Sequence record: PQ850614.1
Direction: 5' to 3' (one strand)
Source: Escherichia phage LorandFenyves_Bas91
Length of the DNA: 64,000 bases
Below, in pieces: positions 23,890-56,611 of the stretch; positions within the stretch are counted from its first letter, which is position 1; every line of letters begins with the position of its first letter. A program made the position numbers and the translations under genes. The notes beneath the pieces were generated by a model, which saw only the letters and a list, made by a program, of their open reading frames with translations, did not search any database and was not told the DNA's origin.

Positions 23890-24084
23890 TCACTCTACCA
23901 ATGCAGGTACTTCTATCCTTTTAACTGTGAATGTCTTGTTTGGAAACTTTCGAACTAGCTCTGCTGCTTTGGTTATTGCTAAGTTCTCTGTCTCAAAGAT
24001 ACACAGTTGACCATTTAATGCTACGAGAGTGGAGCCACCGCTGAAGACGGCCCAAGATTCATAATAACCACGAACACTCATCAC
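23890..24084 (-). CDS. hypothetical protein
   Basis: Coding-like ORF. Confidence 0.35.
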   Translation of the reverse strand: MMSVRGYYESWAVFSGGSTLVALNGQLCIFETENLAITKAAELVRKFPNKTFTVKRIEVPALVE

Positions 24085-24449
24085 TCAACCTCGATACTAT
24101 ATAGAGTTTTCAGTGTATCTTTAATCCAAGCCCGTCGTTTTGGATTCTTATGATGTGCCCCGTTTTCCCTATCTCTAAAATACTGATCACATCCGAATGG
24201 GTATGTTGGGTCCAAAAACTTTTCTTGATTAAACATATTCTTCATGTCGTCAATATCTAAATGCTTTGTGAAATAGTAATACCTCTTATAACAGCGAAAG
24301 TTGAAGCATAATCCGTGATCTTCACTAAACCATTTTGGATAAATTCCAGTCTTAGTTATTTCATAATATTGGAGGAGGAAATCCTCCATCCCCCTCTCTT
24401 TAGCTAAACATCTCAATGTTCTGTAGATGATATTGGTTTCTTTCATCAC
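24081..24449 (-). CDS. hypothetical protein
   Basis: 122-aa ORF directly downstream of the polymerase gene. Confidence 0.4.
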   Translation of the reverse strand: MMKETNIIYRTLRCLAKERGMEDFLLQYYEITKTGIYPKWFSEDHGLCFNFRCYKRYYYFTKHLDIDDMKNMFNQEKFLDPTYPFGCDQYFRDRENGAHHKNPKRRAWIKDTLKTLYSIEVE

Positions 24450-24454
24450 TCACC

Positions 24455-26299: not shown

Positions 26300-26315
26300 T
26301 TTATACTCCTTTAAA

Positions 26316-26738
26316 TTATTGGTAAAGTAAATCTGTAAATGCTTGGTTATCTTCTACTACATTCAACATGGTAGCTTCATCACTATAAGCCCTAACCGTC
26401 CCGTTGACAACTGTCCAAGGAGGAGGTGGAGGTGGTGTATGGTTAGCCCTAGCTTCACGAGGTTGCTCTCGTACTAAATGAGCCACAACCCTTTGGTTAG
26501 CGACTTCTTCTCTTTCTCTAATAGCTCTCTGGATATAGGCCAGCTTCATGCCCCAAGCTTCTTCAAACTCTTGAGGATGCTTATCACTGATAACCACATA
26601 CTGACGTTCAGAAATACCAGAGCGAATCTCTGATAATAATTCATGGAACAAATCTAGTTCGTGCTCAGTGAGATTCATTTCAATATCATCCCACTTTAGA
26701 ACTAGGAAACGGTTTTGGTGTCTAGCTGGTAATGGCAT
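26316..26738 (-). CDS. hypothetical protein
   Basis: 140-aa ORF with poly-proline tract. Confidence 0.4.
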   Translation of the reverse strand: MPLPARHQNRFLVLKWDDIEMNLTEHELDLFHELLSEIRSGISERQYVVISDKHPQEFEEAWGMKLAYIQRAIREREEVANQRVVAHLVREQPREARANHTPPPPPPWTVVNGTVRAYSDEATMLNVVEDNQAFTDLLYQ

Positions 26739-26741
26739 AAC

Positions 26742-27026
26742 TCAACCTCTTGGGAATGGCATCAAAAATTCCACAGCAGATTTAATTTCACTATTGATTC
26801 TTGAATCACGATAAGAGATAAACTTACCTTTGCTATCACGTAACATCACATGAGTTCTGGCTGTTTTGTGAGGGAGTAGTGTGACACTAGTTGGGATAGT
26901 ATCAATCCCTACAGCGTATTTGTCAATAGTCTTACTTTCAGCCAACAGATAAGACCAAGTACGCGGTTTCTTCTCCGGGCGGTTGGGGTATGTGTCTCGA
27001 ATCTGTACCATAGCTAACTTATTCAT
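26742..27026 (-). CDS. hypothetical protein (tandem paralogue of the next gene)
   Basis: Shares ...TART.V.LR...GKFISY...FPxG with 27028-27282. Confidence 0.45.
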   Translation of the reverse strand: MNKLAMVQIRDTYPNRPEKKPRTWSYLLAESKTIDKYAVGIDTIPTSVTLLPHKTARTHVMLRDSKGKFISYRDSRINSEIKSAVEFLMPFPRG

Positions 27027-27027
27027 A

Positions 27028-27282
27028 TTAAACTCCTTTAGGGAATGGAATGAGATTTTCTACTGCAACACGGAAAGATTTTTCTACGTTCTTATTCTTA
27101 TAAGAGATAAATTTTCCATCAGCTCCGCGAAGGAGTACGTTAGTGCGAGCTGTTTTTGGGTTAATCTCAATCATCCGTTCGATGATCTTGTTTGATTTGT
27201 TGTGGTGGTTAGTGAAAGTCCACTTAACAACCTTGCCATCTCTGGTTACATCAAAAATATTTACGATTTTTACAATAGACAT
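27028..27282 (-). CDS. hypothetical protein (tandem paralogue)
   Basis: See 26742-27026. Confidence 0.45.
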   Translation of the reverse strand: MSIVKIVNIFDVTRDGKVVKWTFTNHHNKSNKIIERMIEINPKTARTNVLLRGADGKFISYKNKNVEKSFRVAVENLIPFPKGV

Positions 27283-27350
27283 ACTTATTACCTAGGAAGT
27301 TTAGTTTGGTTTATATAAAAGAAAAGGCCACCCATTTGGGTAGCCTTATA

Positions 27351-27668
27351 TTACGATGAGCTTAAAGCTCCTTTGCGTGCTCCAGCTGCTTTTCCAGCTC
27401 GATCACCACTTTTGCCGCCGTTTGAACGGTTTGAGCTGACTGATTCAACACGTAAGTTGCTTGACGCATTAGAGCCTCCAGACTTGACAGCTCGTTTGTG
27501 TCCAACGTCTTTACCTCTGACAGCAGCTTTTCCATCGCGCTTTTCAACGATGCGACGTGCACGGTGGCGCTGAGCATCTCCGCTCTTGCTCCCAACGCCT
27601 GTCTCACCACGGGCAATTGCGGTACGTCTTTCTTGTGCATAATCTCTCTTTCCTACATGGTCTGCCAT
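27351..27668 (-). CDS. basic G/K/R/S-rich low-complexity protein (possible nucleic-acid binder)
   Basis: AAGGAG RBS 7 nt upstream; TAATGTATA motif ~40 nt upstream; chosen over the overlapping alternative frame 27362-27640. Confidence 0.5.
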   Translation of the reverse strand: MADHVGKRDYAQERRTAIARGETGVGSKSGDAQRHRARRIVEKRDGKAAVRGKDVGHKRAVKSGGSNASSNLRVESVSSNRSNGGKSGDRAGKAAGARKGALSSS

Positions 27669-27704
27669 TTAGAACTCCTTAATATATCAGTGTACACTAA
27701 GGAG

Positions 27705-27713
27705 TATACATTA
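27705..27713 (-). promoter_or_regulatory. TAATGTATA motif
   Basis: Exact 9-mer on the minus strand ~40 nt upstream of the 27668 start. Confidence 0.5.
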
Positions 27714-27724
27714 TAAGTTACTGT

Positions 27725-28462
27725 TTAAGCTTTCTTTTCCATTGCTTTAACAATCGCCTTACAGAAACCAGAACGAACAATATCATCCGATTCACCGTCT
27801 ACAATCTCAGCAAACTCATACAGATCATGTTCATCAATAAAGTTGGTAGCCCAAGTAAGACCACTCTCACGACCACGCATATCATGCTGGTTAGTATCAC
27901 CCATGCAGAACAGCTGAGAGGTTTCTCCCAATCGAGTCATGATTGAGAAGGCTTCATCTTTAGTGGTGTTCTGGAACTCATCAACAATAACAATAGCATC
28001 ATTGAAAGAACGACCACGGAGATATTCCAGAGGTACGAACTCAATGTTGCTATTACCAAGTTGGCATTCATAGAACCCCTTACCATATCGCTGAGTGATA
28101 ACATCAATGATAGGCATCAGGTATGGTTCAAACTTCTCACGCATTCCTCCCGGAAGTAACCCAAGAGAGTTGCCCATGCCAACCGAAGGGCGACTCAGAA
28201 TGATCTTCTGAATCTTACCACTCTTCAGTGCATCAATAACCGTGGAAGTGATTACAAAGGTCTTACCACAGCCCGCAGGAGCGTCTGTGAACACAACTTG
28301 TTTAGTCTTAATAGCATTGAGTAGCTCAGACTGAAACTGGTTCTGAGGGACTACAGGCTTTGCTAAAAGCACCTCTTCATACTCTCGCTTACCTTTACGA
28401 GTAACAAGTGCTTCCCGACGAAGGTCTTTCCGTGATTCTTTCCGTGATTGACGACGACTCAT
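27725..28462 (-). CDS. phoH: PhoH-like ATPase
   Basis: Walker A APAGCGKTF; LSRPSVGMGNSLGLLPGG; VIVDEFQNTT...GDTNQHD match PhoH conserved blocks. Confidence 0.8.
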   Translation of the reverse strand: MSRRQSRKESRKDLRREALVTRKGKREYEEVLLAKPVVPQNQFQSELLNAIKTKQVVFTDAPAGCGKTFVITSTVIDALKSGKIQKIILSRPSVGMGNSLGLLPGGMREKFEPYLMPIIDVITQRYGKGFYECQLGNSNIEFVPLEYLRGRSFNDAIVIVDEFQNTTKDEAFSIMTRLGETSQLFCMGDTNQHDMRGRESGLTWATNFIDEHDLYEFAEIVDGESDDIVRSGFCKAIVKAMEKKA

Positions 28463-28644
28463 TTACGCTCTCCAATTTCTTCGTAATGACACTCAGTAGT
28501 TAAGCAGTCTTTACAGATTGCTGTATAAACCCTGACGTTAGTAAATCGTTTATTCTTCCCTTTGGTTGGAGAGCCTTTGGCAAGCTCTCTGATAACCTTG
28601 TTACTTAAATGAAGGTTTGTTCCTTCACATCTAGAGCACTTCAT
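28459..28644 (-). CDS. small zinc-ribbon protein
   Basis: CxxC...CxxC spacing in 61 aa. Confidence 0.4.
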   Translation of the reverse strand: MKCSRCEGTNLHLSNKVIRELAKGSPTKGKNKRFTNVRVYTAICKDCLTTECHYEEIGERK

Positions 28645-28960
28645 GGTTCATATCTTTATGAATCCTGTAAACAGCTGTCGCCATACAAGCAACAGCCTCA
28701 TTATGTGGGAGGTGCATTCCTGTAGAACCATCCCAATCTTTGAACTCAGCGTCAAAGACTCCGGTAGGCTCTGGATACAGAGCTTGCAGCTCCACTAGAT
28801 CATTAGCAACTTGTTGCCATTTATCATCAGACCAGATAGGGTCATCCAACCAGTAATACAAATAGGAATGGATGATCAATTGCCTTCTATACCGATTGAT
28901 TACTTCAGCTGGACTTATCTCACTTCCATTTGAAGTCCTAAATGTATTACCGTCGATCAT
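28631..28960 (-). CDS. hypothetical protein
   Basis: 109-aa ORF. Confidence 0.4.
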   Translation of the reverse strand: MIDGNTFRTSNGSEISPAEVINRYRRQLIIHSYLYYWLDDPIWSDDKWQQVANDLVELQALYPEPTGVFDAEFKDWDGSTGMHLPHNEAVACMATAVYRIHKDMNHEVL

Positions 28961-29163
28961 TATGAAAATTTCCGTTCTGTTAAAAAGTATATAACTTCAC
29001 CATCCGGAGACCGAACTTTCTCTCCGTTTACCAACTTCTTGGCGTCTTCATATGAAGAACAATCTAAAGCAGGGTTATCAGGTGTTGGTTTCCTTAGGAA
29101 ATATTTCCAAGTCCAACGCTCTCCGTCATCGTCTTGGCAGTCAAGAGTCCACAAAGTTTTCAT
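28960..29163 (-). CDS. hypothetical protein
   Basis: 67-aa ORF. Confidence 0.35.
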   Translation of the reverse strand: MKTLWTLDCQDDDGERWTWKYFLRKPTPDNPALDCSSYEDAKKLVNGEKVRSPDGEVIYFLTERKFS

Positions 29164-29408
29164 TTCACAACCTTAAATTTGAATGTTGTTGGGTGATAAT
29201 AGTGCAACCTGTTAATGGTGTGCTTTGTTTCAAGATATATCCTACAAGAGTGACACATGACATGAGACAGACCAGTCACAGAGTTGGGTTTGAAGTTGGC
29301 GATAGGCTTCTCTTTCTTACAGAAGCTACAGACTTTCTTTTCCATCTTTTCTCCAGTGATCAACGAATTGCTGAAACACTTTACGGTCAAATGTGAAATT
29401 ACGAGCAA
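29160..29408 (-). CDS. small Cys-rich (zinc-binding-like) protein
   Basis: CSFCKK...CHSCR pattern. Confidence 0.4.
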   Translation of the reverse strand: MLVISHLTVKCFSNSLITGEKMEKKVCSFCKKEKPIANFKPNSVTGLSHVMCHSCRIYLETKHTINRLHYYHPTTFKFKVVK

Positions 29409-29559
29409 TTCCGCATTCTCTAAAAGTGGCAGGCATATAATCTACATCACCTTCAGATGTATGATCATAGACTTGAATAAGCTTTTTAATCTTATCCTTC
29501 TCTCTTCGAGGAAGCATCCTAAATGCCTCCTGAATATCTGTAATGTGTTTGATTTTCAT
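29326..29559 (-). CDS. hypothetical protein
   Basis: 77-aa ORF. Confidence 0.35.
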   Translation of the reverse strand: MKIKHITDIQEAFRMLPRREKDKIKKLIQVYDHTSEGDVDYMPATFRECGIARNFTFDRKVFQQFVDHWRKDGKESL

Positions 29560-29708
29560 CAGAAATTCCTGCTAATCCTCTGAGTTGTGGGAACAGCAAT
29601 ATTCACATACTCCACAACAAGGGCAAATTTCTACACTTGGGTCGTATGCATCATCAACTGTCATCCCACACTTAGTGCAGAACACATCATCATCTTCCTC
29701 TTCCAATA

Positions 29709-30365
29709 TTAACTCTCCAAAGTTTTCTTCAGGGCTGCCCATGAGATTGGGTAAAGTTTAGCCATCTCTTCATCCAGAGATTGAGCAAACACTCGAACTT
29801 CGTATTGAGCGTGAGAGGAGAGTCGCTGACGACACAACTCAAACCAGCCATATAAAGAACCAGTCCACACCCACTCAGTGATCATTCCCTGAGGAAGAAC
29901 AAATCGGGCTTGCTCTGGTGCAACGAATTCGATTAACTTGTCATATGCTGCTAGAGAAGCTTCATATGCATCGTTAATCAACATTAATGCTTCAGCTCGT
30001 TCTCCATCGATGAGTTGAACCCCTGAACCTGCATGGAGGTCCGAAGGTCTCGCAAAAATCTCTTTAGGGATGAAGACTTCAACTGCTCCATCTTTATACC
30101 GCCGGGACATTTCGTTCCACGAGAATCCAACCTGATGCTTGCCCAACTGTCTCGCAATTGCGATAGGTGCTTTGCATCGGAAACTGACTTGCGGGTGTCG
30201 GAATGGGGTAACATGCTTCTCTCTTGCGAGGAAGTTGATGAGACGTTCATCACGTTCATTTAAATCACCTTCACGGGTTACGCCAAAGGAAACTCGAGCT
30301 GCGTTTACTACGCTACGATCACTTCCCATAGCTTCGATTAATGTTGCTTGTAGTTGTTCATTCAT
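29709..30365 (-). CDS. thyX: flavin-dependent thymidylate synthase (ThyX-like)
   Basis: HVTPFRHPQVSFRCKAPIAIARQ...KHQ...SWNEMSRRY resembles the ThyX RHR...SxxxSxRY signature region. Confidence 0.65.
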   Translation of the reverse strand: MNEQLQATLIEAMGSDRSVVNAARVSFGVTREGDLNERDERLINFLAREKHVTPFRHPQVSFRCKAPIAIARQLGKHQVGFSWNEMSRRYKDGAVEVFIPKEIFARPSDLHAGSGVQLIDGERAEALMLINDAYEASLAAYDKLIEFVAPEQARFVLPQGMITEWVWTGSLYGWFELCRQRLSSHAQYEVRVFAQSLDEEMAKLYPISWAALKKTLES

Positions 30366-30380
30366 CCGTGAATATCCTTA

Positions 30381-30656
30381 TTACTTATTGCTCAGGGCTG
30401 TGTCCAAAAATGCTTTCAGGTTTGCTTCGGTCTGCATACCAGAGAGGCTGTAGTGTGCACCACTGTTACGGTCAGGCACAACAAAAGCAGGGATGCTTCG
30501 TACACCATACTTAACAGCTTGCTCACGACCATCACCTTCAAGGATGTTAATCTCTTCCACTTCTACATCAAACTCCTTAACAACCTTCTCAAAGGTAGGA
30601 GCCATTGCTTTACATGGAGCACACTGATCACTATAAAACTTAATTACTTTAGACAT
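30381..30656 (-). CDS. thioredoxin
   Basis: CAPC active site; KYGVRSIP and LKAFLD parallel E. coli TrxA blocks. Confidence 0.8.
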   Translation of the reverse strand: MSKVIKFYSDQCAPCKAMAPTFEKVVKEFDVEVEEINILEGDGREQAVKYGVRSIPAFVVPDRNSGAHYSLSGMQTEANLKAFLDTALSNK

Positions 30657-30664
30657 GTAAATCC

Positions 30665-30844
30665 TTATGCGGTCAGGAGGTGAAGCAGGAACGGGATAAC
30701 AACAGCTACGATAACCATGATAGTTGATGCTGTTTGAATCTCACCTTTCTTATCAGGAGTTTCTTCAATAAGCTTACCAGAAGCCCAATAAATACCACCA
30801 CCAATAAAGATAGCCCAAATACCCCATACGATTGCTGATAACAT
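30665..30844 (-). CDS. small two-TMD membrane protein (59 aa)
   Basis: AAGGA RBS; two hydrophobic helices; preferred over the overlapping alternative-frame ORF 30706-30978. Confidence 0.35.
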   Translation of the reverse strand: MLSAIVWGIWAIFIGGGIYWASGKLIEETPDKKGEIQTASTIMVIVAVVIPFLLHLLTA

Positions 30845-30904
30845 ATATCTATATCCTTATAAATAAGTTCGCCCCACCTCGGGTTAGGAGACAGGGCGGA
30901 GGTT

Positions 30905-31516
30905 TTAGTAAGACACATCACCACTTGAATGGGACATGTTGCTCTTGACGAAGTAGCAATACTTGCCAAGACCTTCATTAATTTCTTGAAGCATACTCTG
31001 ATCGACAGGGTAAGTGGCTAAATCGCCATCAAACTCATCCATCTTCTCAATAATACACATCAAGGTCATGCACATATCAGAGAGCATACCGTCCATGTCT
31101 AGATCAGCATTACCCTCTGAGAACCAAGCATGAGAGAGGTAGTTAGCTGCTGTAGCATCCACTTTAACACAGTGATAACGCATACGTTCAGCAATACGAT
31201 CTCCTACTTGTCGTGCGTAATTTTCCAACTCATCAAACATACCATGAACACCCTGAAATCCTGCACCAGAGACATTCCAGTGGTAGTTTTTAGCTTTGAT
31301 ATGCAAGAGTTCCATATTAGCTTGTAAGCAGCTCAGGATGTGTTCTAGGCTGTTTCCGCTAATCATACCCTGCATCGTTTCAAGGCGAGAGATTGAAAGC
31401 TCTGACCGATCTAACATATTATAGTCGGCACGACCAATATCAGGTAAATCAAAGACATTCTTATGCATTTGGGTTTTCTCCATCAAGTTCAACTGAGTTA
31501 GCAACGTTACGTGCAA
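30905..31516 (-). CDS. Dps-like (ferritin-superfamily) protein
   Basis: KNYHWNVSGAGFQGVHGMFDE...DRIAERM and C-terminal YFVKSNM parallel Dps conserved blocks; exact start uncertain. Confidence 0.55.
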   Translation of the reverse strand: MHVTLLTQLNLMEKTQMHKNVFDLPDIGRADYNMLDRSELSISRLETMQGMISGNSLEHILSCLQANMELLHIKAKNYHWNVSGAGFQGVHGMFDELENYARQVGDRIAERMRYHCVKVDATAANYLSHAWFSEGNADLDMDGMLSDMCMTLMCIIEKMDEFDGDLATYPVDQSMLQEINEGLGKYCYFVKSNMSHSSGDVSY

Positions 31517-46538: not shown

Positions 46539-46901
46539 CTATTGGTTTTTAATCAACTCAATCGACTTACGGATATAAAGAATATCTCGGAAGTTTCGAT
46601 AGTTGTTCATAAATTGGTGCTTCTGGAAAGTAGCTTCTTCCAGCGCTTTCTTTGCTTCTGCGTAGCTTTTACGGGCAAGATGTACAACCCGTTCTGGTAA
46701 CATGTTTGCATGACGGATGACATACTTGTGAGCTTTCATGTTGCTTTGCTCACGAGCAATCTTACCTTTAGCAACTTTGATACCATTTGCAATCCAAGCA
46801 AGTTCTTGCTCAAGCTCATCGTTGGACATTCCACCGAGGTTTGATGCAACCTTGTTCAGAGTTTCAATATTAACGTTGCCCTTGATGGGACGTGTATTCA
46901 T
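46539..46901 (-). CDS. hypothetical protein
   Basis: 120-aa ORF. Confidence 0.4.
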   Translation of the reverse strand: MNTRPIKGNVNIETLNKVASNLGGMSNDELEQELAWIANGIKVAKGKIAREQSNMKAHKYVIRHANMLPERVVHLARKSYAEAKKALEEATFQKHQFMNNYRNFRDILYIRKSIELIKNQ

Positions 46902-47073
46902 ACTTACTCCTGTTGTTTACACTCGTCAATAACCCACTGATAAGTGGATTGCCCAGAAAAGAAACACTGAATAAATCCAGATGTTCTCTGCGTTACCAGT
47001 GCTAGTGCACAAATCACTATCGCTGCTGCTAGCAGTTTTAAATCTAATTTAGACATATTCCCTCTCGTTGAAT

Positions 47074-47100
47074 TTAAAAAAGGACTCTCCGAAAAGAGTC
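47074..47100 (-). terminator. intrinsic terminator
   Basis: GACTCT-CCGAAA-AGAGTC hairpin followed on the minus strand by TTTTTT. Confidence 0.5.
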
Positions 47101-47162
47101 AAGCTTTAAATACAAAAAGATATTACCCAATATCTGTGGATAACCTGCTCTTAAAATATCTA

Positions 47163-47213
47163 TCCGACGGATGTTCGAGGGATGTTCCTCTCCCTAGCAT
47201 CGGCCCCATACGG
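47163..47213. repeat. conserved intergenic element, copy A
   Basis: CGGATGTTCGAG-(hairpin)-CTCTCCCTAGC flanked by a closing stem and a second hairpin; counterpart at 53183-53229. Confidence 0.6.
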
Positions 47214-47282
47214 GAAATATATTAAGATTAGGTTAGTTGAGTCAGAATAACTCATATAGCCCTCCGAAGAAGGCTATAGATG

Positions 47283-47750
47283 TTACTCTATCTTAACTGA
47301 AGGACAATACTTCTCTTTCTTGCTGCGATACATAACAACAATCCAGTTTGAATCACGACGCTCTTTCTTACGTCGTTTCTTTTCAGCACGAGTTTCATAT
47401 GTGCTAGTTCGGTGGTCACGGTATATTCCACGAAGTTCATAAAATGCCCAACCACCACCAAACACTACACCAGCCAAAGCAGCCAAAGATGAGGCACCAA
47501 GAGCAGGGGCAGCGAACCATGTCCACCAGTCAAAGGTTGACACGTCGTTGTGCCCGAGGAGTGTCCCACCTACTCCAGTAAGTGCCGCACATATAACAGA
47601 TAAGAATCCAGACAGTATAACAAAACGCAAAACTGTTCGCCAGAAGTATTCACAAAAGTTAGTCATGTTGTCCCAATAGGAATCAGAGAGACTTGACGTA
47701 GCTTTGTTGAATCTGTGCAACCATCCGTTCTTATTAACCTTAATCATCAT
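47283..47750 (-). CDS. membrane protein (two TMDs, basic C-terminus)
   Basis: Hydrophobic helices VLRFVILSGFLSVICAALTGV and WFAAPALGASSLAALAGVVFGG. Confidence 0.4.
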   Translation of the reverse strand: MMIKVNKNGWLHRFNKATSSLSDSYWDNMTNFCEYFWRTVLRFVILSGFLSVICAALTGVGGTLLGHNDVSTFDWWTWFAAPALGASSLAALAGVVFGGGWAFYELRGIYRDHRTSTYETRAEKKRRKKERRDSNWIVVMYRSKKEKYCPSVKIE

Positions 47751-47980
47751 TCGCCTTTCTTAGCACGATCTTTGGCAGTTTTACCGGTGCGAATGCGATG
47801 GGAAACGTTAACCAGAGTGCCACCATCAACTACGGTAACGCTCTTGTTTTTAGCCAGATCGAACACAGTTTTCTCCGTGCCACCCAAGCGAATTTGCTTA
47901 GGCTCACTGAAGGTTTGGGTTGATTTGGATTGGAACTGGAACGGTTGACGGATTGCATCAATTGCACTTACTTTAGACAT
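47747..47980 (-). CDS. hypothetical protein
   Basis: 77-aa ORF. Confidence 0.35.
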   Translation of the reverse strand: MSKVSAIDAIRQPFQFQSKSTQTFSEPKQIRLGGTEKTVFDLAKNKSVTVVDGGTLVNVSHRIRTGKTAKDRAKKGE

Positions 47981-48040
47981 AGGGGAAATTCCTTAAAAAG
48001 TCATGGCTGCGTAGAGGGAATTCCCTACGCAAATTGGGCC

Positions 48041-48070
48041 GCCCACAGAGAGGCGTCATAGTACTAAAAG
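48041..48070. repeat. conserved element with TAGTACTA palindrome, copy 1
   Basis: ACAGAGAGGCGTCATAGTACTAAAAGGAGG; 18-nt identity with 55307-55324; preceded by a hairpin. Confidence 0.55.
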
Positions 48071-48199
48071 GAGGAGAGAAGAGGGCTTATTTAGCTACCT
48101 TTTTCTGTCCGTTTACGAACCAGATAATTGAACCGTCAGGCTGTCGTTGACCGAAGCCTTTCTGGTTAATCATATCGTCATAAGAATATGCTTTACGTC

Positions 48200-48460
48200 T
48201 CATTTGTTTTCCTGTGGAGTTAAGATAATTTCAGCTTTACTAAACTTCTCACCAACAACCATATCACCAGAGATGACACGCAGTTCTCCAGTGCCTAAGT
48301 TAACAGCTCCAGCAGGTTGACAGCCCCTGCTCTTAGCTGTAAGCATATAAATCTTTTGATCCTTACATTCTTGGAGTGTGAATACGTCAGCCATGCTTAG
48401 GTCTTTAACATGGAGGATTATTTCCTCCTTGCTTTTAACTTTAATGTGAATAGTGCTCAT
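48200..48460 (-). CDS. small protein, member of an expanded paralogous family
   Basis: Shares a loose GD.F...[FYW]...(C/V)VNL..G pattern with at least seven other small ORFs. Confidence 0.4.
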   Translation of the reverse strand: MSTIHIKVKSKEEIILHVKDLSMADVFTLQECKDQKIYMLTAKSRGCQPAGAVNLGTGELRVISGDMVVGEKFSKAEIILTPQENK

Positions 48461-48462
48461 GA

Positions 48463-48708
48463 TTACTCCTGAACCACTGACATACGAATCACTTCAACTG
48501 GGGCATCACTTTTCATAACACCTAATACACCAGTAAGAAGATTAACTGTCGTAATCCAACCATCTTCTACAGAGATTTTGTTGGACACATTATTGACACG
48601 GATGTAATACTGAGGGGATGCCGTTCCTCTCTGAACTACGAAAGGGTTTCCGGGAATAATTGTAGCCAGTGAAACCGTGTTATCTTTAATCTTTGGGATG
48701 ATCTTCAT
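48463..48708 (-). CDS. small protein, expanded family member
   Basis: See 48200-48460. Confidence 0.4.
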   Translation of the reverse strand: MKIIPKIKDNTVSLATIIPGNPFVVQRGTASPQYYIRVNNVSNKISVEDGWITTVNLLTGVLGVMKSDAPVEVIRMSVVQE

Positions 48709-48959
48709 TTAGAGTCCTTAATAACGTTAGCTTCAACCTTAACAGGAATAACAGAGATACCCTCTACCGGAGCACTTAGGAATCCATCTTCTAGATTGAC
48801 ACACACAACTCGATCTCGTGCAACTTCTACCCAATCAGTGCATTCCGCAGTACAAACCATATGCACTACACCGTCTTCTTTCAATCTAAAGGTATCACCC
48901 TTCTTCAGAGTGCGGAGCTTTGCCGTCTTGATGGTTTTGTTCAACTCGTTAACTTTCAT
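48705..48959 (-). CDS. small protein, expanded family member
   Basis: LKKGDTFRLKEDG...VVCVNLEDGFL. Confidence 0.4.
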   Translation of the reverse strand: MKVNELNKTIKTAKLRTLKKGDTFRLKEDGVVHMVCTAECTDWVEVARDRVVCVNLEDGFLSAPVEGISVIPVKVEANVIKDSK

Positions 48960-48967
48960 ATTGATTC

Positions 48968-49279
48968 CTATTTAAGTTTGAGGCTAATATTAAGGTGCAT
49001 ACATGCCCTGTTCTGTACAGCAGCATAACTTCTACCGAGCATGTCAGCCATTCTCTGAATAGACATGAACCCAGCATTACGGATAAGGAACTGGTCTTCT
49101 TCTTCAGACCACTTAACTCGGATTGAAGCTCTTGATATTCCGAACTTAGTGCAAGCTGTGTTAACAGCATTCTCCGTTACATTCATAATCTGAGCAACTT
49201 CTTGAACCGAGTACTCTTTGATCAATCTCCGAAGATTTTCAATCTGCATCGGAGTCCATATAGTTCTTCGTGCTTTCAT
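48968..49279 (-). CDS. DNA-binding protein with two HTH-like repeats (putative regulator)
   Basis: ATG at 49279 after GGAGGA; two repeats of an E.A..M.V....V..R.....I-type helix-turn-helix pattern. Confidence 0.45.
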   Translation of the reverse strand: MKARRTIWTPMQIENLRRLIKEYSVQEVAQIMNVTENAVNTACTKFGISRASIRVKWSEEEDQFLIRNAGFMSIQRMADMLGRSYAAVQNRACMHLNISLKLK

Positions 49280-49710
49280 ACATCCTCCAATTAAACATTT
49301 ATATAAGACTTGCTTAGATAAAGATTCAATAAAATAGGGGGAGGGGACGAATCCTCCCATATCCTATTAATTAAGTTTGCATGTAAGATCTAACAATCGG
49401 TTGCCTTTGTAGGAATAGGTGTAAAGCCAATCCAGCACTAAACTCCCGCCCCCTTAGTGGGCTGGGTTATTAAAGGGTAACGCCCTTATGGGCTAGTTAC
49501 ATGAATGTTAGTTTGATAGGAGATCTGAAGTCCTATCTCAAAGGACTCTCGTAAGAATCCTTCACGATATTACTTATTCATTTTTCGTCGGCTATCTCTC
49601 CAAGCCAACCAAGTGTAGGTTTTCAACTCTTCTAAACTTTCTGGAGTGAATAGGTATTCTTTGAAGGTGTCACTAAACCACTCTAAAAATTCTTCAGTCA
49701 TAATAACATC

Positions 49711-49956
49711 TCATTTCTTAGGTAGAATAATATCCCACAGCCATGCCCACAAAATAAGTGATATAAAAATCACAGCAATGATGGGCCATAGAAAAACTAT
49801 AATTGCTATCTTTGATAAGTTTGGTTCGTTATCCCACCCTCTGAACTCGATACTGCCCTTTACATCAAGATATCTTACCAGAGCTGAAACTATCACAATA
49901 CCTATCAGGTAAACAATCAAGACACTAACAGGACTGATCACAAGGTTGATCTCCAC
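49711..49956 (-). CDS. small integral membrane protein
   Basis: 81 aa, two to three hydrophobic helices. Confidence 0.45.
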   Translation of the reverse strand: MEINLVISPVSVLIVYLIGIVIVSALVRYLDVKGSIEFRGWDNEPNLSKIAIIVFLWPIIAVIFISLILWAWLWDIILPKK

Positions 49957-50107
49957 ATGTTTTACAAATCACTGGTGAATAACTACAGGCAGGATATACT
50001 GACACACCATCAAACGTTTCACACCTACAATCAGGGCACTCACCATTGGATTCCATGTCATCATCATCATACACTTCTCCACCACCATAACAGCTCATAT
50101 GAACTCC

Positions 50108-50329
50108 TTAGTAAACTAAACCTATAGCCTTTGCATCAGGCTGAGGGACTACTTTTGCACTAGGGCGATAGCCATCCACTGAGCCATTCCAAAGATTGAC
50201 ACAGGTGATATACCCATCGTTCAAGTAGTCTGTTTTAATCCAGAAGTGTTTATCATGACCAAAAATACTTCCGTTTGGCAGAGTGGACAGCTCAACGGTT
50301 TTAAGCGACTGCTTAGAGTCTAGTTTCAT
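50108..50329 (-). CDS. small protein, expanded family member
   Basis: LPNGSIFGHDKHFW...ITCVNLWNGSV. Confidence 0.4.
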   Translation of the reverse strand: MKLDSKQSLKTVELSTLPNGSIFGHDKHFWIKTDYLNDGYITCVNLWNGSVDGYRPSAKVVPQPDAKAIGLVY

Positions 50330-50336
50330 AATAACC

Positions 50337-50585
50337 TCAATTATCGTAGCATGTATTCCAATACATGTAGTTAACGTACGTTCTCGGTTTGATTCCGTAC
50401 ATGATGAAGTGAGTCTTCTTAATCCTTTCCTTCAGCGTGTAATAAAGGCCATCACTGAAGTTACCAATCTTTACTTGGAAGCGTAAGGAGCGAGCATCCA
50501 TTCGAAGCATAGAGATTAGCTGTACCCTACTACCTCCAGCCATCTCTTCAAGAAGCTTCTTTGTATTCCAATAATGAGCTGTCAT
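50337..50585 (-). CDS. hypothetical protein
   Basis: 82-aa ORF. Confidence 0.35.
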   Translation of the reverse strand: MTAHYWNTKKLLEEMAGGSRVQLISMLRMDARSLRFQVKIGNFSDGLYYTLKERIKKTHFIMYGIKPRTYVNYMYWNTCYDN

Positions 50586-50586
50586 A

Positions 50587-50868
50587 TTACCACTCCTTAC
50601 CGGTTGTTGTTACAGAACCACCACACCACTGCGCATCGGATAAGGTTTTAGTCTCCTCATCTACTGCTGCACCATTCAGGCATGAGATACCACTGTAACG
50701 CATATCAATTTCACCAGAAGGAACCTTCTCGCCCTTATGCCAGCGAGAAACACAAACACCTTCCACTGCTACTGCACACCATCCATCAGGACGGCTCTGT
50801 ACGCAGCCTGTAAGGGCCACACAGACAAGGAAGATACAGATTAAGGATATTACACCACCCCAACTCAT
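50587..50868 (-). CDS. lipoprotein (Cys-rich)
   Basis: Signal peptide with lipobox LTGC. Confidence 0.45.
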   Translation of the reverse strand: MSWGGVISLICIFLVCVALTGCVQSRPDGWCAVAVEGVCVSRWHKGEKVPSGEIDMRYSGISCLNGAAVDEETKTLSDAQWCGGSVTTTGKEW

Positions 50869-51013
50869 AACTACCTCCTATTTGATTTGGTGGACTATCT
50901 GGAATCGAACCAGAAGCTCACTAAGAAAGTAATTCCCACTGTTATAAAAGCACTTGCCTCAACAGGGATACACTAACTCTGGTGCCGTACCCATACTAGC
51001 CCTTGTTTAAAAT

Positions 51014-51089
51014 TGGTCGGGACGGAAGGATTCGAACCCTCGTAAGGCGAGTTAGAAGCTCGCTGCCTGTTCCACTAGACTACGCCCCG
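51014..51089 (-). tRNA. tRNA-Arg (anticodon UCU), CCA encoded
   Basis: Hand-folded cloverleaf: acceptor CGGGGCG/CGTCCCG, D-stem GTCT/AGGC, anticodon stem GCGAG/CTCGC with loop CTTCTAA, T-arm GAGGG-TTCGAAT-CCTTC, discriminator A plus CCA. Confidence 0.85.
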
Positions 51090-51502
51090 ATAGATTTGAA
51101 ACCGTTATACTTACCTGCACATGATCTGTTACAAAAAGAATTTGCATATTTAACATTTCGCTTTTCTTTTTCAAAAGATCTTCCACAATAAGAGCAAACA
51201 ACTGAAATCATTGTTCTTCCAGTAGTTGCTTCTAATGTTGACTTCTTTCTGTGATTTTCTATGGAAAGTATCTGAAGATTAGATATGTCATCATTAGTTT
51301 TATTTCTGTCAATATGATCAACCTCCTCGTCTTCAGTTAGGTACCTGCCTATGTGACAAGACATTAAATATCTTGCGTAAGAAATGGTTGTCCTCTCCGT
51401 GTCGGTATTATACAAATCAACACGCTTCCTACCATCTCTGCTTGTTCTTAAGTAGCCCAATCGCCAGTCATTAACGAAGGGGTATTCTAACTCTATCTTC
51501 AA
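51080..51502 (-). CDS. HNH endonuclease (start uncertain)
   Basis: EVDHIDRNKTNDDISNLQILSIENHRKK HNH motif; track 3' end overlaps the tRNA by ~10 nt. Confidence 0.55.
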   Translation of the reverse strand: MKIELEYPFVNDWRLGYLRTSRDGRKRVDLYNTDTERTTISYARYLMSCHIGRYLTEDEEVDHIDRNKTNDDISNLQILSIENHRKKSTLEATTGRTMISVVCSYCGRSFEKEKRNVKYANSFCNRSCAGKYNGFKSIGA

Positions 51503-51536
51503 AACCCCTCCATTGAGCTAAGGGTGCTGAGTTTGT

Positions 51537-51788
51537 TTAACTAAAGATACGCAAGGCCACATCGTGACCGATATGACCGGGAACTTTATGCTGTTCTATT
51601 TTCAAACAGCGCTTACAGACACGAGATACACGAGACTCTTTTCTCTCGACTGGAGTGTCTTTAGCGTGAGTGATTTGAAGGTTTTCAGTGATCACCCACT
51701 CGTGTTTACATCCAGAATCTTCGGGCTTTTTCTTACGAAAGAACATAACACCCCTTAGATCAGATCTGTTTTCTTGTGCAGACCACAA
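51537..51788 (-). CDS. small Cys/His-rich protein
   Basis: GCKHEW...VCKRC pattern shared with two neighbouring small ORFs. Confidence 0.35.
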   Translation of the reverse strand: MWSAQENRSDLRGVMFFRKKKPEDSGCKHEWVITENLQITHAKDTPVERKESRVSRVCKRCLKIEQHKVPGHIGHDVALRIFS

Positions 51789-51928
51789 ACTTTACAGCGA
51801 GAGTAGATACGCAACCCTTGTCGCTCTCTGTCAGTAAGTTTATTTGTGATCGTCAGTTCATAAGTAGAAAGATCTTCCCACTCATGGAAATGAAAGAAGC
51901 GTTTGAACCATTTGATCATAATGATTCC

Positions 51929-52150
51929 TTAGATTACATCACGATGACTAACATCACCACACACCTTACACTGAATAACGTAACGTGTGCCCTTGTCATT
52001 ATTCCCATCTGAATCTGTATAGACCAGAGGGCGAGTATCAATAATCTTCCAATCATGACAATGAAAGACACGCTTTAGCCACTTGAACATATTAACCTCA
52101 AGCACAAGCAGGGAGTGTGATGATCTTATACTTACCATCAAACTCTCCAA
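51929..52150 (-). CDS. small Cys/His-rich protein
   Basis: Internal MFKWLKRVFHCHDW...CKVCG; paralogue of a 54-aa ORF at ~51755-51919. Confidence 0.35.
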   Translation of the reverse strand: MESLMVSIRSSHSLLVLEVNMFKWLKRVFHCHDWKIIDTRPLVYTDSDGNNDKGTRYVIQCKVCGDVSHRDVI

Positions 52151-52349
52151 ATAAACCTAAGAATGTAGGACTGTAAGTACCAGTACAAACAAACTCATCA
52201 AACAATGCGTTATAGCTAGGCTTAATCTTCCAAGCCCATACATAACCCATCTTGTCAATTGCAATGTAACGAGTGTTCAGAGGAACAGTCATTATTACAC
52301 CATCAACTTCGATCACTTTAGTTATTGGTGCAGCTTGAAAGTTTTTCAT
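52098..52349 (-). CDS. hypothetical protein
   Basis: 83-aa ORF. Confidence 0.35.
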   Translation of the reverse strand: MKNFQAAPITKVIEVDGVIMTVPLNTRYIAIDKMGYVWAWKIKPSYNALFDEFVCTGTYSPTFLGLFGEFDGKYKIITLPACA

Positions 52350-52564
52350 ACTTTACCTTTAATGAAAATGTCATTACCACATACACAGCATGAACGAACA
52401 ACAGTAGCGCCGCGCTGAACGATACGAACCTCTTCTTTAACCAGATTGACACGAGCACTACAACAAGGAGAGTTAACATAAGAGTAACCAGCTTGTGTAT
52501 TCTTGATTGTTTGCTTAGACATTTGAGCTTCCTCTTGTTAGTTTAAGTAAGAGCTGACCCTTAA

Positions 52565-52596
52565 TTAAAACAACAAAGGCCGCCCGAAGGCAGCCT
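52565..52596 (-). terminator. intrinsic terminator (UUCG-loop hairpin)
   Basis: Minus-strand RNA AGGCUGCC-UUCG-GGCGGCCU followed by UUUGUUGUUUU; same core as at 23328. Confidence 0.55.
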
Positions 52597-52600
52597 CTCT

Positions 52601-52852
52601 TTATTGACTAACACCACGAATCAGATGATTCTGTAGCATTTCATCTTCTGCATTATACAGGAATGCAAACATCAACTCCTTAGCCACATCTCTTGAGCAA
52701 TTAAGACACTTAGAGATTTGCGTTAGTTGCATGTTGCGTTCTGTGTGTTCCATCAAGGCAATGCGAATGATCTCTCGCATACCTATCACATGGGTTGTCT
52801 TAACCGGCATAGGTCCAATTGCCTTGTTTGTTACGGATGGCTGACATTGCAT
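52601..52852 (-). CDS. hypothetical protein
   Basis: 83-aa ORF; a 46-aa ORF overlaps its 5' end in another frame. Confidence 0.4.
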   Translation of the reverse strand: MQCQPSVTNKAIGPMPVKTTHVIGMREIIRIALMEHTERNMQLTQISKCLNCSRDVAKELMFAFLYNAEDEMLQNHLIRGVSQ

Positions 52853-53182
52853 GAATCCAGAAGCCTTCCAGTTTCAGAGCACCATTAGCTACTGCATCCA
52901 TACGTTCAGGGCGGTTCATACGTTTGGTTGATACTTTCATACCTATCTCTCTTTGTTAGTGGAGGCATTATTGCCAGTTGATATAAGGGATAGCCCTAGT
53001 CAGTAGACTAATCCTGACCGCGTACTCATTGCCGACCTTCTCTGCCTAAGAGTTCAGGTTCTAGAGCTATCTCTTATTCCAACTGGTGAAGACTCCCTAC
53101 CCCTAGGAAGTCTCCTGAATCCCAAACCAATACGTACCCCTACATATCGGAAAGTCTTTCGAAAATTAACAGGTTTTAGTCT

Positions 53183-53229
53183 AACACCGGATGTTCGAGC
53201 AAGCTCTCCCTAGCGGTGTGGCATATGCC
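53183..53229. repeat. conserved intergenic element, copy B
   Basis: ACACCGGATGTTCGAG-CAAG-CTCTCCCTAGC-GGTGTG plus GGCATATGCC hairpin; counterpart of 47163-47213. Confidence 0.6.
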
Positions 53230-53298
53230 TGAATTAATAAGTTAATGAGGAACACCCTCACATAGCCCTCTGATAAACACAAGGGCTATAAGTCGGTG

Positions 53299-53517
53299 TT
53301 ACTTTTGGGATAAACACAGATCAGGGCGTGGCATAACAGTGGTTGATAGACCGAAAACTTCAACAGAACCACTATTCAGATTAGCGGCCTTGCACAAACC
53401 ATCAGGAGTTTTATCTTCTAACATTAGCCAGAAACGTCTATCGTAGGAGAAAACATCACCACTTTTAACATCTTCTGCATTTGCATATTTAGGATAATCA
53501 ACTACTTTAATTTCCAT
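53299..53517 (-). CDS. small protein, expanded family member
   Basis: VKSGDVFSYDRRFW...LCKAANLNSGSV. Confidence 0.4.
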   Translation of the reverse strand: MEIKVVDYPKYANAEDVKSGDVFSYDRRFWLMLEDKTPDGLCKAANLNSGSVEVFGLSTTVMPRPDLCLSQK

Positions 53518-53527
53518 CTACTTACCC

Positions 53528-53746
53528 TTATTGGTTGATGGTTAGGTGAACTAGCTTATTCACATGAGCGAAGTTAGGTAGGATTTGCATTTCATTATTG
53601 AAGATATTAAAACAACGAACCCCGCCCTCTACAGCATAAGCAGATTTCTGAAACAGACTACCTCCCCACACAAATACATCATGTGTTTCAAGAGATCGTA
53701 ACTGAACAGCCTCGTCAACAACCTTCTTTTCAATGTTCATAATCAC
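53528..53746 (-). CDS. small protein, expanded family member
   Basis: LETHDVFVWGGSLF...VRCFNIFNNEM. Confidence 0.4.
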   Translation of the reverse strand: MIMNIEKKVVDEAVQLRSLETHDVFVWGGSLFQKSAYAVEGGVRCFNIFNNEMQILPNFAHVNKLVHLTINQ

Positions 53747-54711: not shown

Positions 54712-55101
54712 TTATTCCCTAGAGCTATTATCGAACACTAAATCACCACAATACATAGGATTGGCATACCATTTTGGCACCCCTTCGCTCTTACTCTGAA
54801 AGTAAGTCCCACTATAAAGCGGAACATAATTCTTCGTAAGGGCACGTTTAGCTAGCCGCTCGCTTTCTCCAATGGCTTGCTTAGTCATCGGATTTTTATC
54901 ACGAATCAGCTTTACATAACGTTTATAAGGTTTCTCCTGTTTTAATAGTACCGAAATCCACTCAAACTGGTTCTTTTGTCTTATCACCTGTTCAGCGGTC
55001 AGTTTTCGTTGGGCCATTCTATTTATCACGGTATCCGCAACTAAAGCCTTACATGCGGTTGGCTGATTCCCTGCCTCATAATAAATAGTCAATGTCAACA
55101 T
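54712..55101 (-). CDS. cell-wall hydrolase (SleB/CwlJ-type domain)
   Basis: LTIYYEAGNQPTACKALVADTVINRMA...NQFEW parallels the IYxEA...VAxVVxNR...QFxxW pattern. Confidence 0.6.
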   Translation of the reverse strand: MLTLTIYYEAGNQPTACKALVADTVINRMAQRKLTAEQVIRQKNQFEWISVLLKQEKPYKRYVKLIRDKNPMTKQAIGESERLAKRALTKNYVPLYSGTYFQSKSEGVPKWYANPMYCGDLVFDNSSRE

Positions 55102-55144
55102 TAGCTGTGCCGTTGTTATCAGAACTTGATACCTCCTGTTTTAC

Positions 55145-55176
55145 GGGCATAAAAAAGCCCCAGCCGTAGCCGGGGC
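55145..55176 (-). terminator. intrinsic terminator
   Basis: Minus-strand RNA GCCCCGGC-UACG-GCUGGGGC followed by UUUUUU. Confidence 0.6.
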
Positions 55177-55290
55177 AAACCTGAAAGCAACACATGACCG
55201 TTGCTATAAATACACTCGCAAATGCACTTATAGCAACGCAAAAAGCCGCTCAAAGGCGGCTATGCGGAAGCTTCAAATGGGGAGAGGGCA

Positions 55291-55324
55291 CGACGCTACA
55301 GAAAGAGCGTCATAGTACTAAAAG
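55291..55324. repeat. conserved element with TAGTACTA palindrome, copy 2
   Basis: GACGCTACAGAAAGAGCGTCATAGTACTAAAAGAGG; hairpin GACGCT-ACAGAAAG-AGCGTC overlaps the conserved core. Confidence 0.55.
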
Positions 55325-55341
55325 AGGGGGCTATATTCCTA

Positions 55342-55785
55342 CTACTTAACCCTTGCCTCTTTGATGGGGTCAATGTATTTTTCAACGCCCCACTTGTGTT
55401 TACTATCTGCGTAGAAAACATCAGGTGCACACTGGCTTGTCTTAGGGAAAGCCTGCGGGTCTTTCGTGCTACCCTTAAACTTCTGTTTACCACGGGTGCG
55501 ACCATTACAGAAGATTTCTAACTTCTTCTCTTCTTCTGTTTTAGCGCCCCCGCTCTGTAACAAAGAACGTTTATGATCAGCTAATAACAACGCATCAGCA
55601 CGATGGACACGATGGCCTACACGTTTTGCCACACTGGAAGGAACATGGGATTCAGCCTCAGCCTTTGCAGCACGACGTTTTAAACTACGCTTACTAACGT
55701 GATTAGCTGCCTTCGGTTTCTCTTTCTCTAGTTCAGAGATAGCAAAACAACGCCCGCCCTTCATGCTGATTTTAGATTTAGCCAC
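55342..55785 (-). CDS. basic (K/R/A-rich) protein
   Basis: 147-aa ORF; the overlapping ORF 55296-55505 is considered spurious. Confidence 0.45.
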   Translation of the reverse strand: MAKSKISMKGGRCFAISELEKEKPKAANHVSKRSLKRRAAKAEAESHVPSSVAKRVGHRVHRADALLLADHKRSLLQSGGAKTEEEKKLEIFCNGRTRGKQKFKGSTKDPQAFPKTSQCAPDVFYADSKHKWGVEKYIDPIKEARVK

Positions 55786-55854
55786 AATCTTATTCCTTTT
55801 AGTGATAAATTATATCGGGCAAGCCCATCAAGGTGACAGGCTTGAACAAATAAC

Positions 55855-56064
55855 TTAATCGAGTAAACTAAATGACTTCCAACTGCGTAGCAGGATTGTA
55901 CCATCATCCATAGCCACGCATAACTTTAACAGCTTCTTGTTAGCACTACTCACCGTTGTAATTCGTCCGGTTGTACATTTACCTTTATTGCTATAAAGAT
56001 ACACTACACGACGACCTAACAGACGAGAGGGAGCTTTCTTAAACTCTGAAATATTAGTGATCAT
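55855..56064 (-). CDS. small protein (possibly related to the expanded family)
   Basis: 69-aa ORF. Confidence 0.35.
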   Translation of the reverse strand: MITNISEFKKAPSRLLGRRVVYLYSNKGKCTTGRITTVSSANKKLLKLCVAMDDGTILLRSWKSFSLLD

Positions 56065-56285
56065 AATGCTTGATACCTTTGAATATGTTCAATACGGGTG
56101 GATTGAGCAAATGACGCTTTAACAGCCATTTTCCTAACTTCTTCTTTACGCTGGTTAGTGTGTACAGTATCCCAATGATTGTTATCACGTTGGCGCTGTA
56201 ATATCTTACTACATTTGCGATGGTTTCCCGTGCTGCGATGTTTCTCGCAAATAGGACACTTGCCAAAATTATTACTGAATATCAT
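56061..56285 (-). CDS. small basic Cys/His-containing protein
   Basis: CPICEKH...HRKC pattern; preferred over the overlapping frame 56054-56266. Confidence 0.35.
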   Translation of the reverse strand: MIFSNNFGKCPICEKHRSTGNHRKCSKILQRQRDNNHWDTVHTNQRKEEVRKMAVKASFAQSTRIEHIQRYQAL

Positions 56286-56509
56286 TTTCTCAATCCCAAC
56301 TTTCTTAAGATACGGCCTAACGTTGTTTCTTGCGTGATAATATAGCTGATCGCTTCACGTTCCAATGTTTCAATCTTCATTGGTGACGGATACCATTCAC
56401 CGGTAATAACACATTTACATTCAACGCCATACTTTTTAGATAGGCGGTAATGTTGACCGTTGACAAGATTCCGATAAATCGTGGTATGCGTAATTAACAT
56501 GATCATCAC
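56282..56509 (-). CDS. hypothetical protein
   Basis: 75-aa ORF. Confidence 0.4.
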   Translation of the reverse strand: MMIMLITHTTIYRNLVNGQHYRLSKKYGVECKCVITGEWYPSPMKIETLEREAISYIITQETTLGRILRKLGLRK

Positions 56510-56611
56510 CTTTGATTAGATTCTTTGATTAATGCACTGAATCAATGCACTGATAAAAGAAAAGGCGCTACCCGTTAAGATAGCGCCTTATGTTTATTCA
56601 AATTGTCTTAC

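Follow-up and report, generated by a model that had tools for sequence, protein, structure and literature searches.

The window analysed here, the whole 64,000-nucleotide (nt) stretch of DNA from Escherichia phage LorandFenyves_Bas91 (PQ850614.1), belongs by its sequence to a phiEco32-like podophage of the genus Kuravirus: at 46800-53600 it is 97% identical to Escherichia phage vB_EcoP-CHD5UKE1 and 91.5% identical to phiEco32. Two intergenic copies of one element lie in this interval, with cores at 47159..47217 (copy A) and 53179..53232 (copy B). A first-pass annotation had noticed both copies; its description is corrected here in that genes and RNA alike belong to the minus strand, where the genes around the two copies form part of a leftward early cluster. 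Copy A follows a gene of 155 amino acids (aa; TAA at 47283-47285) and precedes a gene that starts at 47056, and copy B follows a 72-aa gene (TAA at 53299-53301) and precedes a leader and two small genes.

The first-pass annotation had claimed that two conserved strings are shared by the copies and that each copy sits about 40 nt from a hairpin at the end of the upstream gene. Both strings are present exactly twice in the window, as CGGATGTTCGAG-N-CTCTCCCTAGC at 47168-47198 and 53188-53214 (plus-strand coordinates), with 0.00 occurrences expected from 100 shuffles. The ATAGCC...GGCTAT hairpin likewise occurs exactly twice (47256-47277 and 53262-53289; 0.07 expected), at a distance of 43 nt from core A and 33 nt from core B. 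The two-copy element is therefore real, although the repeated unit proved larger than described: it runs from the stop codon of whichever gene lies upstream (GUAAC...), through a stable hairpin without a U-tract (H1), to the end of the core. In both copies, H1 carries the invariant apical stem AUAGCC/GGCUAU.

Folding of the minus-strand RNA gave the same minimum-free-energy structure for A and B: a 3-base-pair (bp) hairpin with an RUAU loop (P0), directly followed by a stem of 6-7 bp (P1), a symmetric 7x7 internal loop in which 5'-CUAGGG[A/C] lies opposite [G/A]AACAUC-3' (CUAGGGA/GAACAUC in both window copies), and a short hairpin (P2). In copy A, P0 (CCC-GUAU-GGG) spans 47205-47214, P1 pairs 47198-47203 with 47164-47169, the loop strands CUAGGGA and GAACAUC occupy 47191-47197 and 47170-47176, P2 occupies 47177-47190 and the core ends in 3' AUAGA. 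In copy B, P0 (GGC-AUAU-GCC) spans 53220-53229, P1 pairs ACACCG (53214-53219) with CGGUGU (53184-53189), the same loop strands occupy 53207-53213 and 53190-53196, P2 (GAG-CUUG-CUC) occupies 53197-53206 and the core ends in 3' UAGA. The stems thus differ between A and B on both sides, as CCGAUG/CGUCGG versus ACACCG/CGGUGU in P1, GAGG/CCUC versus GAG/CUC in P2 and CCC-GUAU-GGG versus GGC-AUAU-GCC in P0. All the covarying stems described earlier are present, but two had to be redrawn: GAGC..GCTC would leave a sterically impossible 2-nt loop and is instead GAG-CUUG-CUC, and GGCA-TA-TGCC, which does differ compensatorily between the copies, is better read as GGC-AUAU-GCC. The folding energy of the cores alone is unremarkable (single-sequence z of -0.3 and -1.0), so the case for structure rests on genome comparison and not on thermodynamics.

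For this comparison we used a covariance model, R1, which was made from 12 distinct copies and searched over all related loci collected; it scores copy A at 83.4 bits (E-value 1e-21) and copy B at 54.9 bits (E-value 3e-13). Across 20 distinct sequences (258 stem cells), standard pairs fill 98.1% of the stem cells, compared with 85.4% in column shuffles and 36-51% with slid partners, and the element is syntenic in all relatives that have it, which bears out the earlier view that structure kept while sequence varies marks a functional RNA. P1 is 100% paired; three of its six pairs have changed on both sides and the outermost takes four pair types. Because the alignment was fitted to R1, these counts lean towards structure, although the compensatory differences are visible in the raw sequences. 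The independent change events are few (A versus B, Kuravirus versus 7-11-like phages, and some within lineages), and we regard the phylogenetic covariation evidence as good but not overwhelming. Nineteen stem cells are G-U, and reading the opposite strand turns them into A-C mismatches and lowers pairing to 91.1%. Since these wobbles fit the minus strand only, the element is, on this evidence, RNA, or formally a single strand of gene-sense polarity. Our data show a cis-encoded structured RNA domain that is part of the leftward early polycistronic messenger RNA (mRNA).

The strictest conservation falls in the internal loop. Invariant in the 20 distinct sequences are 12 of the 14 loop bases, the first three bp of P2 and the closing G-C of P1, within a surrounding module that is only 69-73% identical between Kuravirus and 7-11-like phages. 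The two variable loop bases abut P2 and covary, occurring in distinct contexts as A..G (24), C..A (11), A..A (3) and never as C..G, and the pair switches in each of three lineages (Kuravirus A copies, B copies and the 7-11 group), which suggests that they form a non-Watson-Crick pair. By RNA isostericity, A.G, A.A and C.A are interchangeable in trans Hoogsteen/sugar-edge (sheared) pairs. Given this pattern and the invariant neighbouring G and A, we infer that the loop is a stack of non-canonical pairs with a tandem sheared 5'-GA-3'/3'-AG-5' next to P2; it would then resemble a surface for specific recognition. P0 invariably presents RUAU on three bp and P1 never departs from its 6-7 bp, and one may speculate that P0 lies alongside P1 and touches the internal loop. 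Two further pairing features were seen near the loop. The hexamer AACAUC (AACACC in window copy B) is found both at the 5' base of H1, where it overlaps the stop codon (47282-47277 and 53300-53295), and on the 3' side of the internal loop; in the window, the P2 loop of copy A contains it as well (47186-47181). In copy B, the H1 3' strand GGUGUUC is complementary to the loop strand GAACAUC, making an alternative pairing conceivable.

R1 found exactly two copies in each Gordonclarkvirinae genome region examined (Kuravirus; Suseptimavirus SU7 and EK010; Nieuwekanaalvirus EP335) and a single type-A copy in each of the 7-11-like Salmonella phages 7-11, SE131 and pSal-SNUABM-01. It had no match in the examined parts of APT65 (an Aeromonas phage), GAP52 and PKM.Hi.22.6, and the searched regions of T7, HK022 and the P22-like phages gave none either. 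When IMG/VR and a metagenome collection were scanned by pattern, only these phage clades and a few apparent chance matches came up; the number to be expected by chance was estimated at roughly one for IMG/VR and a few for the metagenome set. The matches outside the clades comprise four distinct sites on seven contigs (L014/L016/L030/L032/L033, L035 and L044); their P1 strands are unpaired and they look like chance. A search for related loci with the upstream membrane protein returned only two known genomes.

The element matches none of the RNA families described so far. At gathering thresholds over the whole window, Rfam 15 recognized only a tRNA-Arg, and at E-values up to 10 it gave one meaningless 13-bit hit in the A region and none in the B region, with no riboswitch or tRNA model among them. 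ARAGORN called only the tRNA-Arg (51014-51089) and nothing tRNA-like or transfer-messenger-RNA-like at the modules. This tRNA gene (anticodon UCU, minus strand) lies between the two copies and is conserved in relatives. The motif is thus absent from Rfam 15, and its status as a new RNA motif is well supported. In the feature tables of the public records examined, the site carries nothing, hypothetical proteins or a terminator, although the original phiEco32 papers may hold an earlier mention. Several other identities were rejected. For CUAGGGAGA, a T7-type promoter reading fails because the upstream 17 nt differ between the copies, with no conserved -17..-1 before TAGGGAGA, and because phiEco32 relies on the host RNA polymerase, a phage polymerase not being mentioned (PMC8948821). 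The phage gp36 promoter is absent from the modules, as neither its tAATGTAtA element nor a TAATGTATA-like site occurs there. Small open reading frames (ORFs) of 28-33 aa over the cores are not conserved, and the B frame that opens at the P0 AUG stops at the loop UAG.

Module A continues beyond its core into a conserved terminator-like hairpin. Upstream, its H1 (47243..47290, minus strand) begins from the TAA of the 155-aa gene and has a lower stem GUAAC/GUUAU. In this module only, an outer stem (UAACCU..UCUUAA..AUAUUU with AGAUAU..UUAAGA..AGGUUA) encloses P0 and P1/P2 in a three-way junction of 95 nt (47141..47235, minus strand), found by single-sequence folds (z of -2.8 in the window, -1.6 in SU7 and -2.5 in 7-11) and by RNAalifold, which for module A gives 25 pairs, eight of them with compensatory change. 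The 3' strand of the outer stem overlaps a perfect DnaA-box consensus, TTATCCACA (47135..47143, minus strand); GGUUAUCCACA is invariant across all A modules, including those of the 7-11-like phages. The box might also be read as a stem followed by U and CCA, in putative resemblance to a tRNA 3' end. The 42 nt around it match, at 36 of 42 positions, a region just upstream of Escherichia coli nrdD in 399 genomes (locus L057, 2501-2542), where the matching sequence is oriented opposite to nrdD. After GGUUAUCCACA come a small AU-rich hairpin and then T_A (47074..47100, minus strand), an intrinsic-terminator-like structure composed of a hairpin (47100-47083) and a U-tract (GACUCUUUUCGGAGAGUC + CUUUUUU). 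From core A to T_A the distance is 65 nt, and the next gene follows T_A immediately; T_A is conserved in SU7 and 7-11 and is an annotated terminator in both records.

Module B has the same front end and a different sequel. Its H1 (53251..53300, minus strand), which begins from the TAA of the 72-aa gene, has a lower stem AACACC/GGUGUU that is compensatory relative to A and varies among B copies as C-G, U-A and U-G. An outer stem around core B was seen in SU7 single-sequence folds and is unsupported across B copies. Downstream follow a leader of about 330 nt, two small genes and a terminator-like hairpin, T_B. Part of the leader is structured (52997..53150, minus strand), with two hairpins (53127-53150 and 53088-53115) whose UA-GGGG-UA tips (GUAGGGGUAC and CUAGGGGUAG) stand on covarying stems and echo the CUAGGG of the core loop. 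Beyond them, the 67 nt at 52997-53063 share about 80% identity with the leader that separates nutL from the N-like gene 24 in P22-like phages (BTP1, L, ST64T and ST104), the BTP1 counterpart lying at 1501-1567 of our locus L008. Common to both are a Shine-Dalgarno-like sequence and the first codons of a short upstream ORF (uORF), MSTRSGLV. In the window the uORF is MSTRSGLVY, with nine codons (53000-53029, minus strand); the BTP1 version has 24 codons and ends in a stop that overlaps the start of N (ATGA), an arrangement suggestive of translational coupling between the BTP1 uORF and N. The two small genes and T_B together occupy 52575..52940 (minus strand): a 46-aa homologue of phi32_112 (52800-52940), which has a basic N-terminus, KVSTKRMNRPER, and is without family annotation; a 69-aa helix-turn-helix-like homologue of phi32_111 (52601-52810); and T_B itself (52575-52598), about 580 nt downstream of core B and conserved in SU7.

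The edges of the module coincide with changes in gene content. In PKM.Hi.22.6 (L019, 12790-12840) and GAP52 (L054, 25835-25890), the equivalent junction keeps the stop-codon hairpin and lacks both the element and T_A, which looks like a clean loss or gain of the cassette. At the PKM.Hi.22.6 junction, the hairpin is followed by AACUAACCU, which corresponds to the first bases of the A outer stem, and then directly by the ribosome-binding site of the next gene. In the shortened genomes LAMP (L023, 10814-11115) and ManiMatter (L028, 7581-7882), a gp116 homologue precedes module B instead, and the homology of module B begins exactly at the stop codon, AAGUAAC; judged from these sequences, the module edge is a recombination joint. 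The annotated 33-aa ORF Bas94_0087 of ManiMatter, which spans the B core, is probably spurious. The promoter-early stem-loops (PeSL) of T4-type phages reportedly mediate modular gene shuffling (Arbiol et al. 2010). Like them, the module is a conserved intergenic cassette that starts with a stem-loop and whose edges are gene-content breakpoints between related phages; unlike them, it has no conserved promoter, and its core has an invariant internal loop and compensatory stems.

What lies beyond T_A bears on function. Transcription of the early cluster depends on host sigma-70 RNA polymerase and sets out from a few promoters at the beginning of the cluster (PMC8948821; PMC4281155), and in our scan of the minus strand the strong sigma-70-type promoters occur only at 58.4-61.5 kb (61503, 58948 and 58462). 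Mapped gp36 promoters lie upstream of genes 68, 58, 40 and beyond, and gp79 is a middle-gene product (PMC8948821); the gp79 gene is located downstream of T_A. Scanning of the window revealed no gp36-type site on the minus strand from about 54 to 32 kb and no strong sigma-70 site between T_A and 39.1 kb, and the first strong promoter for the phi32_69-90 block is found at about 39.1 kb, near the far end of the block. The block beyond T_A therefore appears, from the distribution of predicted promoters, to be transcribed through read-through. For 7-11, an antitermination strategy "remains to be defined" according to its authors (PMC8948821).

We tentatively propose that the element is a recognition RNA, similar to the nut and put sites of lambdoid phages, that governs read-through of the terminators that follow it; this analogy-based reading seems to us possible, though by no means established as probable. 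During elongation, the host RNA polymerase would recognize the nascent RNA, on its own in the manner of HK022 put or with the help of a small protein of phage or host origin in the manner of lambda N-nut. Thus modified, the complex would pass T_A, located 65 nt beyond A, and T_B, located beyond the pair of small genes that B precedes, and the early promoters at the right end could thereby express the genes beyond these terminators, including the phi32_69-90 block. We favour antitermination because the arrangement repeats that of lambda and because the B leader is homologous to the P22 gene-24 leader. As with the lambda and P22 nut sites, there are two copies per genome in early transcripts, and conserved unpaired bases are displayed on a covarying stem. 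Copy A has the order gene stop, site and terminator found in cro-nutR-tR1, and copy B the order site, leader, small regulatory-looking genes and terminator found in nutL-N. T_A and T_B are both terminator-like and conserved in SU7, T_A also in 7-11, and the joint absence of the element and T_A from PKM.Hi.22.6 and GAP52 links the element to that terminator.

A second parallel is HK022 put RNA, which binds the beta' zinc-binding domain and acts without protein factors. Like putL and putR, the element occurs as two related copies in early operons, has adjacent stem-loops joined by 0-1 nt and, as proposed here, would act in cis on the transcribing polymerase; the second put stem also has a non-canonical internal region that includes G.A and C.A (PMC9378689). 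The differences are that the element measures about 55 nt against about 70 nt for put, and that P0 has just 3 bp and shows nothing to suggest a triple helix. With filters off, R1 made no credible match in the HK022 immunity region (24000-32000), the best being 8.3 bits (E-value 0.4) at an implausible site, although R1 models the present element and not put.

Other observations weigh against antitermination. Neither a boxA (CGCUCUUUA-like) nor a boxB hairpin with a GNRA-like pentaloop occurs in the modules, where a 7x7 internal loop takes the place of the 5-nt hairpin loop, and R1 did not match the P22-like nutL regions (L008 and L009). Kilobases separate the element from the promoters. No arginine-rich protein resembling N was identified: neither the 46-aa nor the 69-aa protein matches a characterized family, searches with the gp112-like and gp111-like proteins gave no informative family, the distribution of these proteins does not track the element, and PKM.Hi.22.6 appears to keep a gp112-like gene without it. 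A single copy suffices in the 7-11-like phages. Unlike in lambda and P22, transcription from the early promoters would also meet strong terminator-like hairpins (56589-56562 and 55176-55157, minus strand) before reaching copy B, the first element; either the early cluster consists of several transcription units or read-through is needed before the first element is reached, and some other factor must already handle these hairpins. One more strong terminator-like hairpin (55261-55244, minus strand) is found in the same interval, 54800-56600. Finally, gp79 extends into the channel through which RNA leaves the polymerase (PMC12276001) and so could alter termination without any RNA site.

The main rival is that the element is a site for endonucleolytic processing or mRNA stability, at which a host nuclease (ribonuclease III (RNase III) or another) or a phage nuclease cuts at or beside the loop and splits the early mRNA, leaving H1 to protect the 3' end of the upstream message. 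We consider this doubtful, yet it deserves serious weight. The position of the element, intergenic and right after a stop codon and a stable hairpin without a U-tract, resembles that of the RNase III sites of the T7 early region (R0.3-R1.3), which are likewise repeated intergenic units of stem, internal loop and stem just after stop codons. P1, the loop and P2 would together offer about 17-19 stacked positions, and the early region, as in T7, is one long multi-gene transcript made by the host polymerase from few strong promoters (PMC8948821; our scan). However, there are only two sites for about 55 genes, with an additional H1 and P0 and stricter loop conservation than in T7, and no similarity to the T7 sites emerged: R1 had no match in the T7 early region and the loop of the T7 R1.1 site differs by eye. 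RNase III requires neither 12 invariant loop bases nor a fixed 3-bp P0 with RUAU nor a fixed P1 length, and the strict loop invariance argues for a more specific partner. Processing also leaves the joint absence of element and T_A in GAP52 and PKM.Hi.22.6 unexplained, and as a candidate RNase III site the core is surpassed by the long hairpin within the P22-like segment of the B leader.

Two further RNA-level explanations are improbable. A riboswitch-like aptamer, by which a small molecule or ion tunes downstream genes (in copy A via T_A), would suit the compact fold with invariant unpaired bases between covarying stems, the fixed P0 and P1 lengths, which would permit docking of the RUAU loop on the internal loop, and the order of copy A, in which an aptamer-like junction precedes a terminator. 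Against this, we found no antiterminator pairing: blocking the 5' outer strand did not stop the terminator from forming in any of the four lineages folded (window A, SU7, 7-11 and pSal). Nor does copy B have a nearby expression platform, and the permissive Rfam search returned no riboswitch. Equally hard to credit is the release of module A, about 215 nt from H1 to T_A, as a stable trans-acting non-coding RNA, either derived from a 3' untranslated region or separately transcribed, with B as a paralogous fold in a leader. Module A is structured throughout and closes with a good terminator, it behaves like a portable cassette in that its flanking genes are non-homologous, and it contains a single weak sigma-70 promoter-like match (9/12; CTGACT-18-TATATT, 47245-47216). 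The hexamers of this match are not conserved, however, as the -10 loses A2 in LAMP and SU7 and the spacing differs in 7-11; transcripts starting there would lack the 5' strand of the outer stem, a stem in which compensatory change is seen; and copy B has no terminator of its own.

Least probable of all is a role at the DNA level, as single-stranded hairpins for replication priming or DnaA loading or as a recombination joint like the T4 PeSL cassettes, because the perfect invariant DnaA box beside core A is only half within the predicted stem, B has no box and boxes are not enriched (seven in the window against 7.75 expected, hence no origin-like cluster), and because recombination alone, for all that DNA hairpins also tolerate G-T wobbles and sheared G.A pairs and that the module boundaries are gene-content breakpoints (as in LAMP and ManiMatter), leaves unexplained the compensatory stems around an invariant loop and the pairing asymmetry of 98.1% versus 91.1% between strands.

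Returning to read-through, its boldest form is that the core RNA suffices on its own and binds the RNA polymerase of E. coli, as a second, structurally unrelated put-like class, or else that it is a new class of aptamer, and that in either case it carries transcription across T_A. We judge this unlikely, but if true it would explain the expression of the promoterless "middle" genes, gp79 included, in phiEco32-like phages. Even if the element were a processing site or a protein operator, it would be a new motif with an unusual 7x7 loop and probable non-canonical pairs, and it would correct the annotation of those records, for example that of Bas94_0087, in which small ORFs are called across it. 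phiEco32 serves as a model of how a phage takes over host transcription, here by means of the gp36 sigma factor and gp79. In the published scheme, a leftward cluster that extends over tens of kilobases and contains several terminator-like hairpins has all its early promoters at the right end, and some middle genes are left with no identified promoter. For this missing step, a clade-specific conserved fold ahead of conserved terminators offers a concrete candidate that is easy to mutate.

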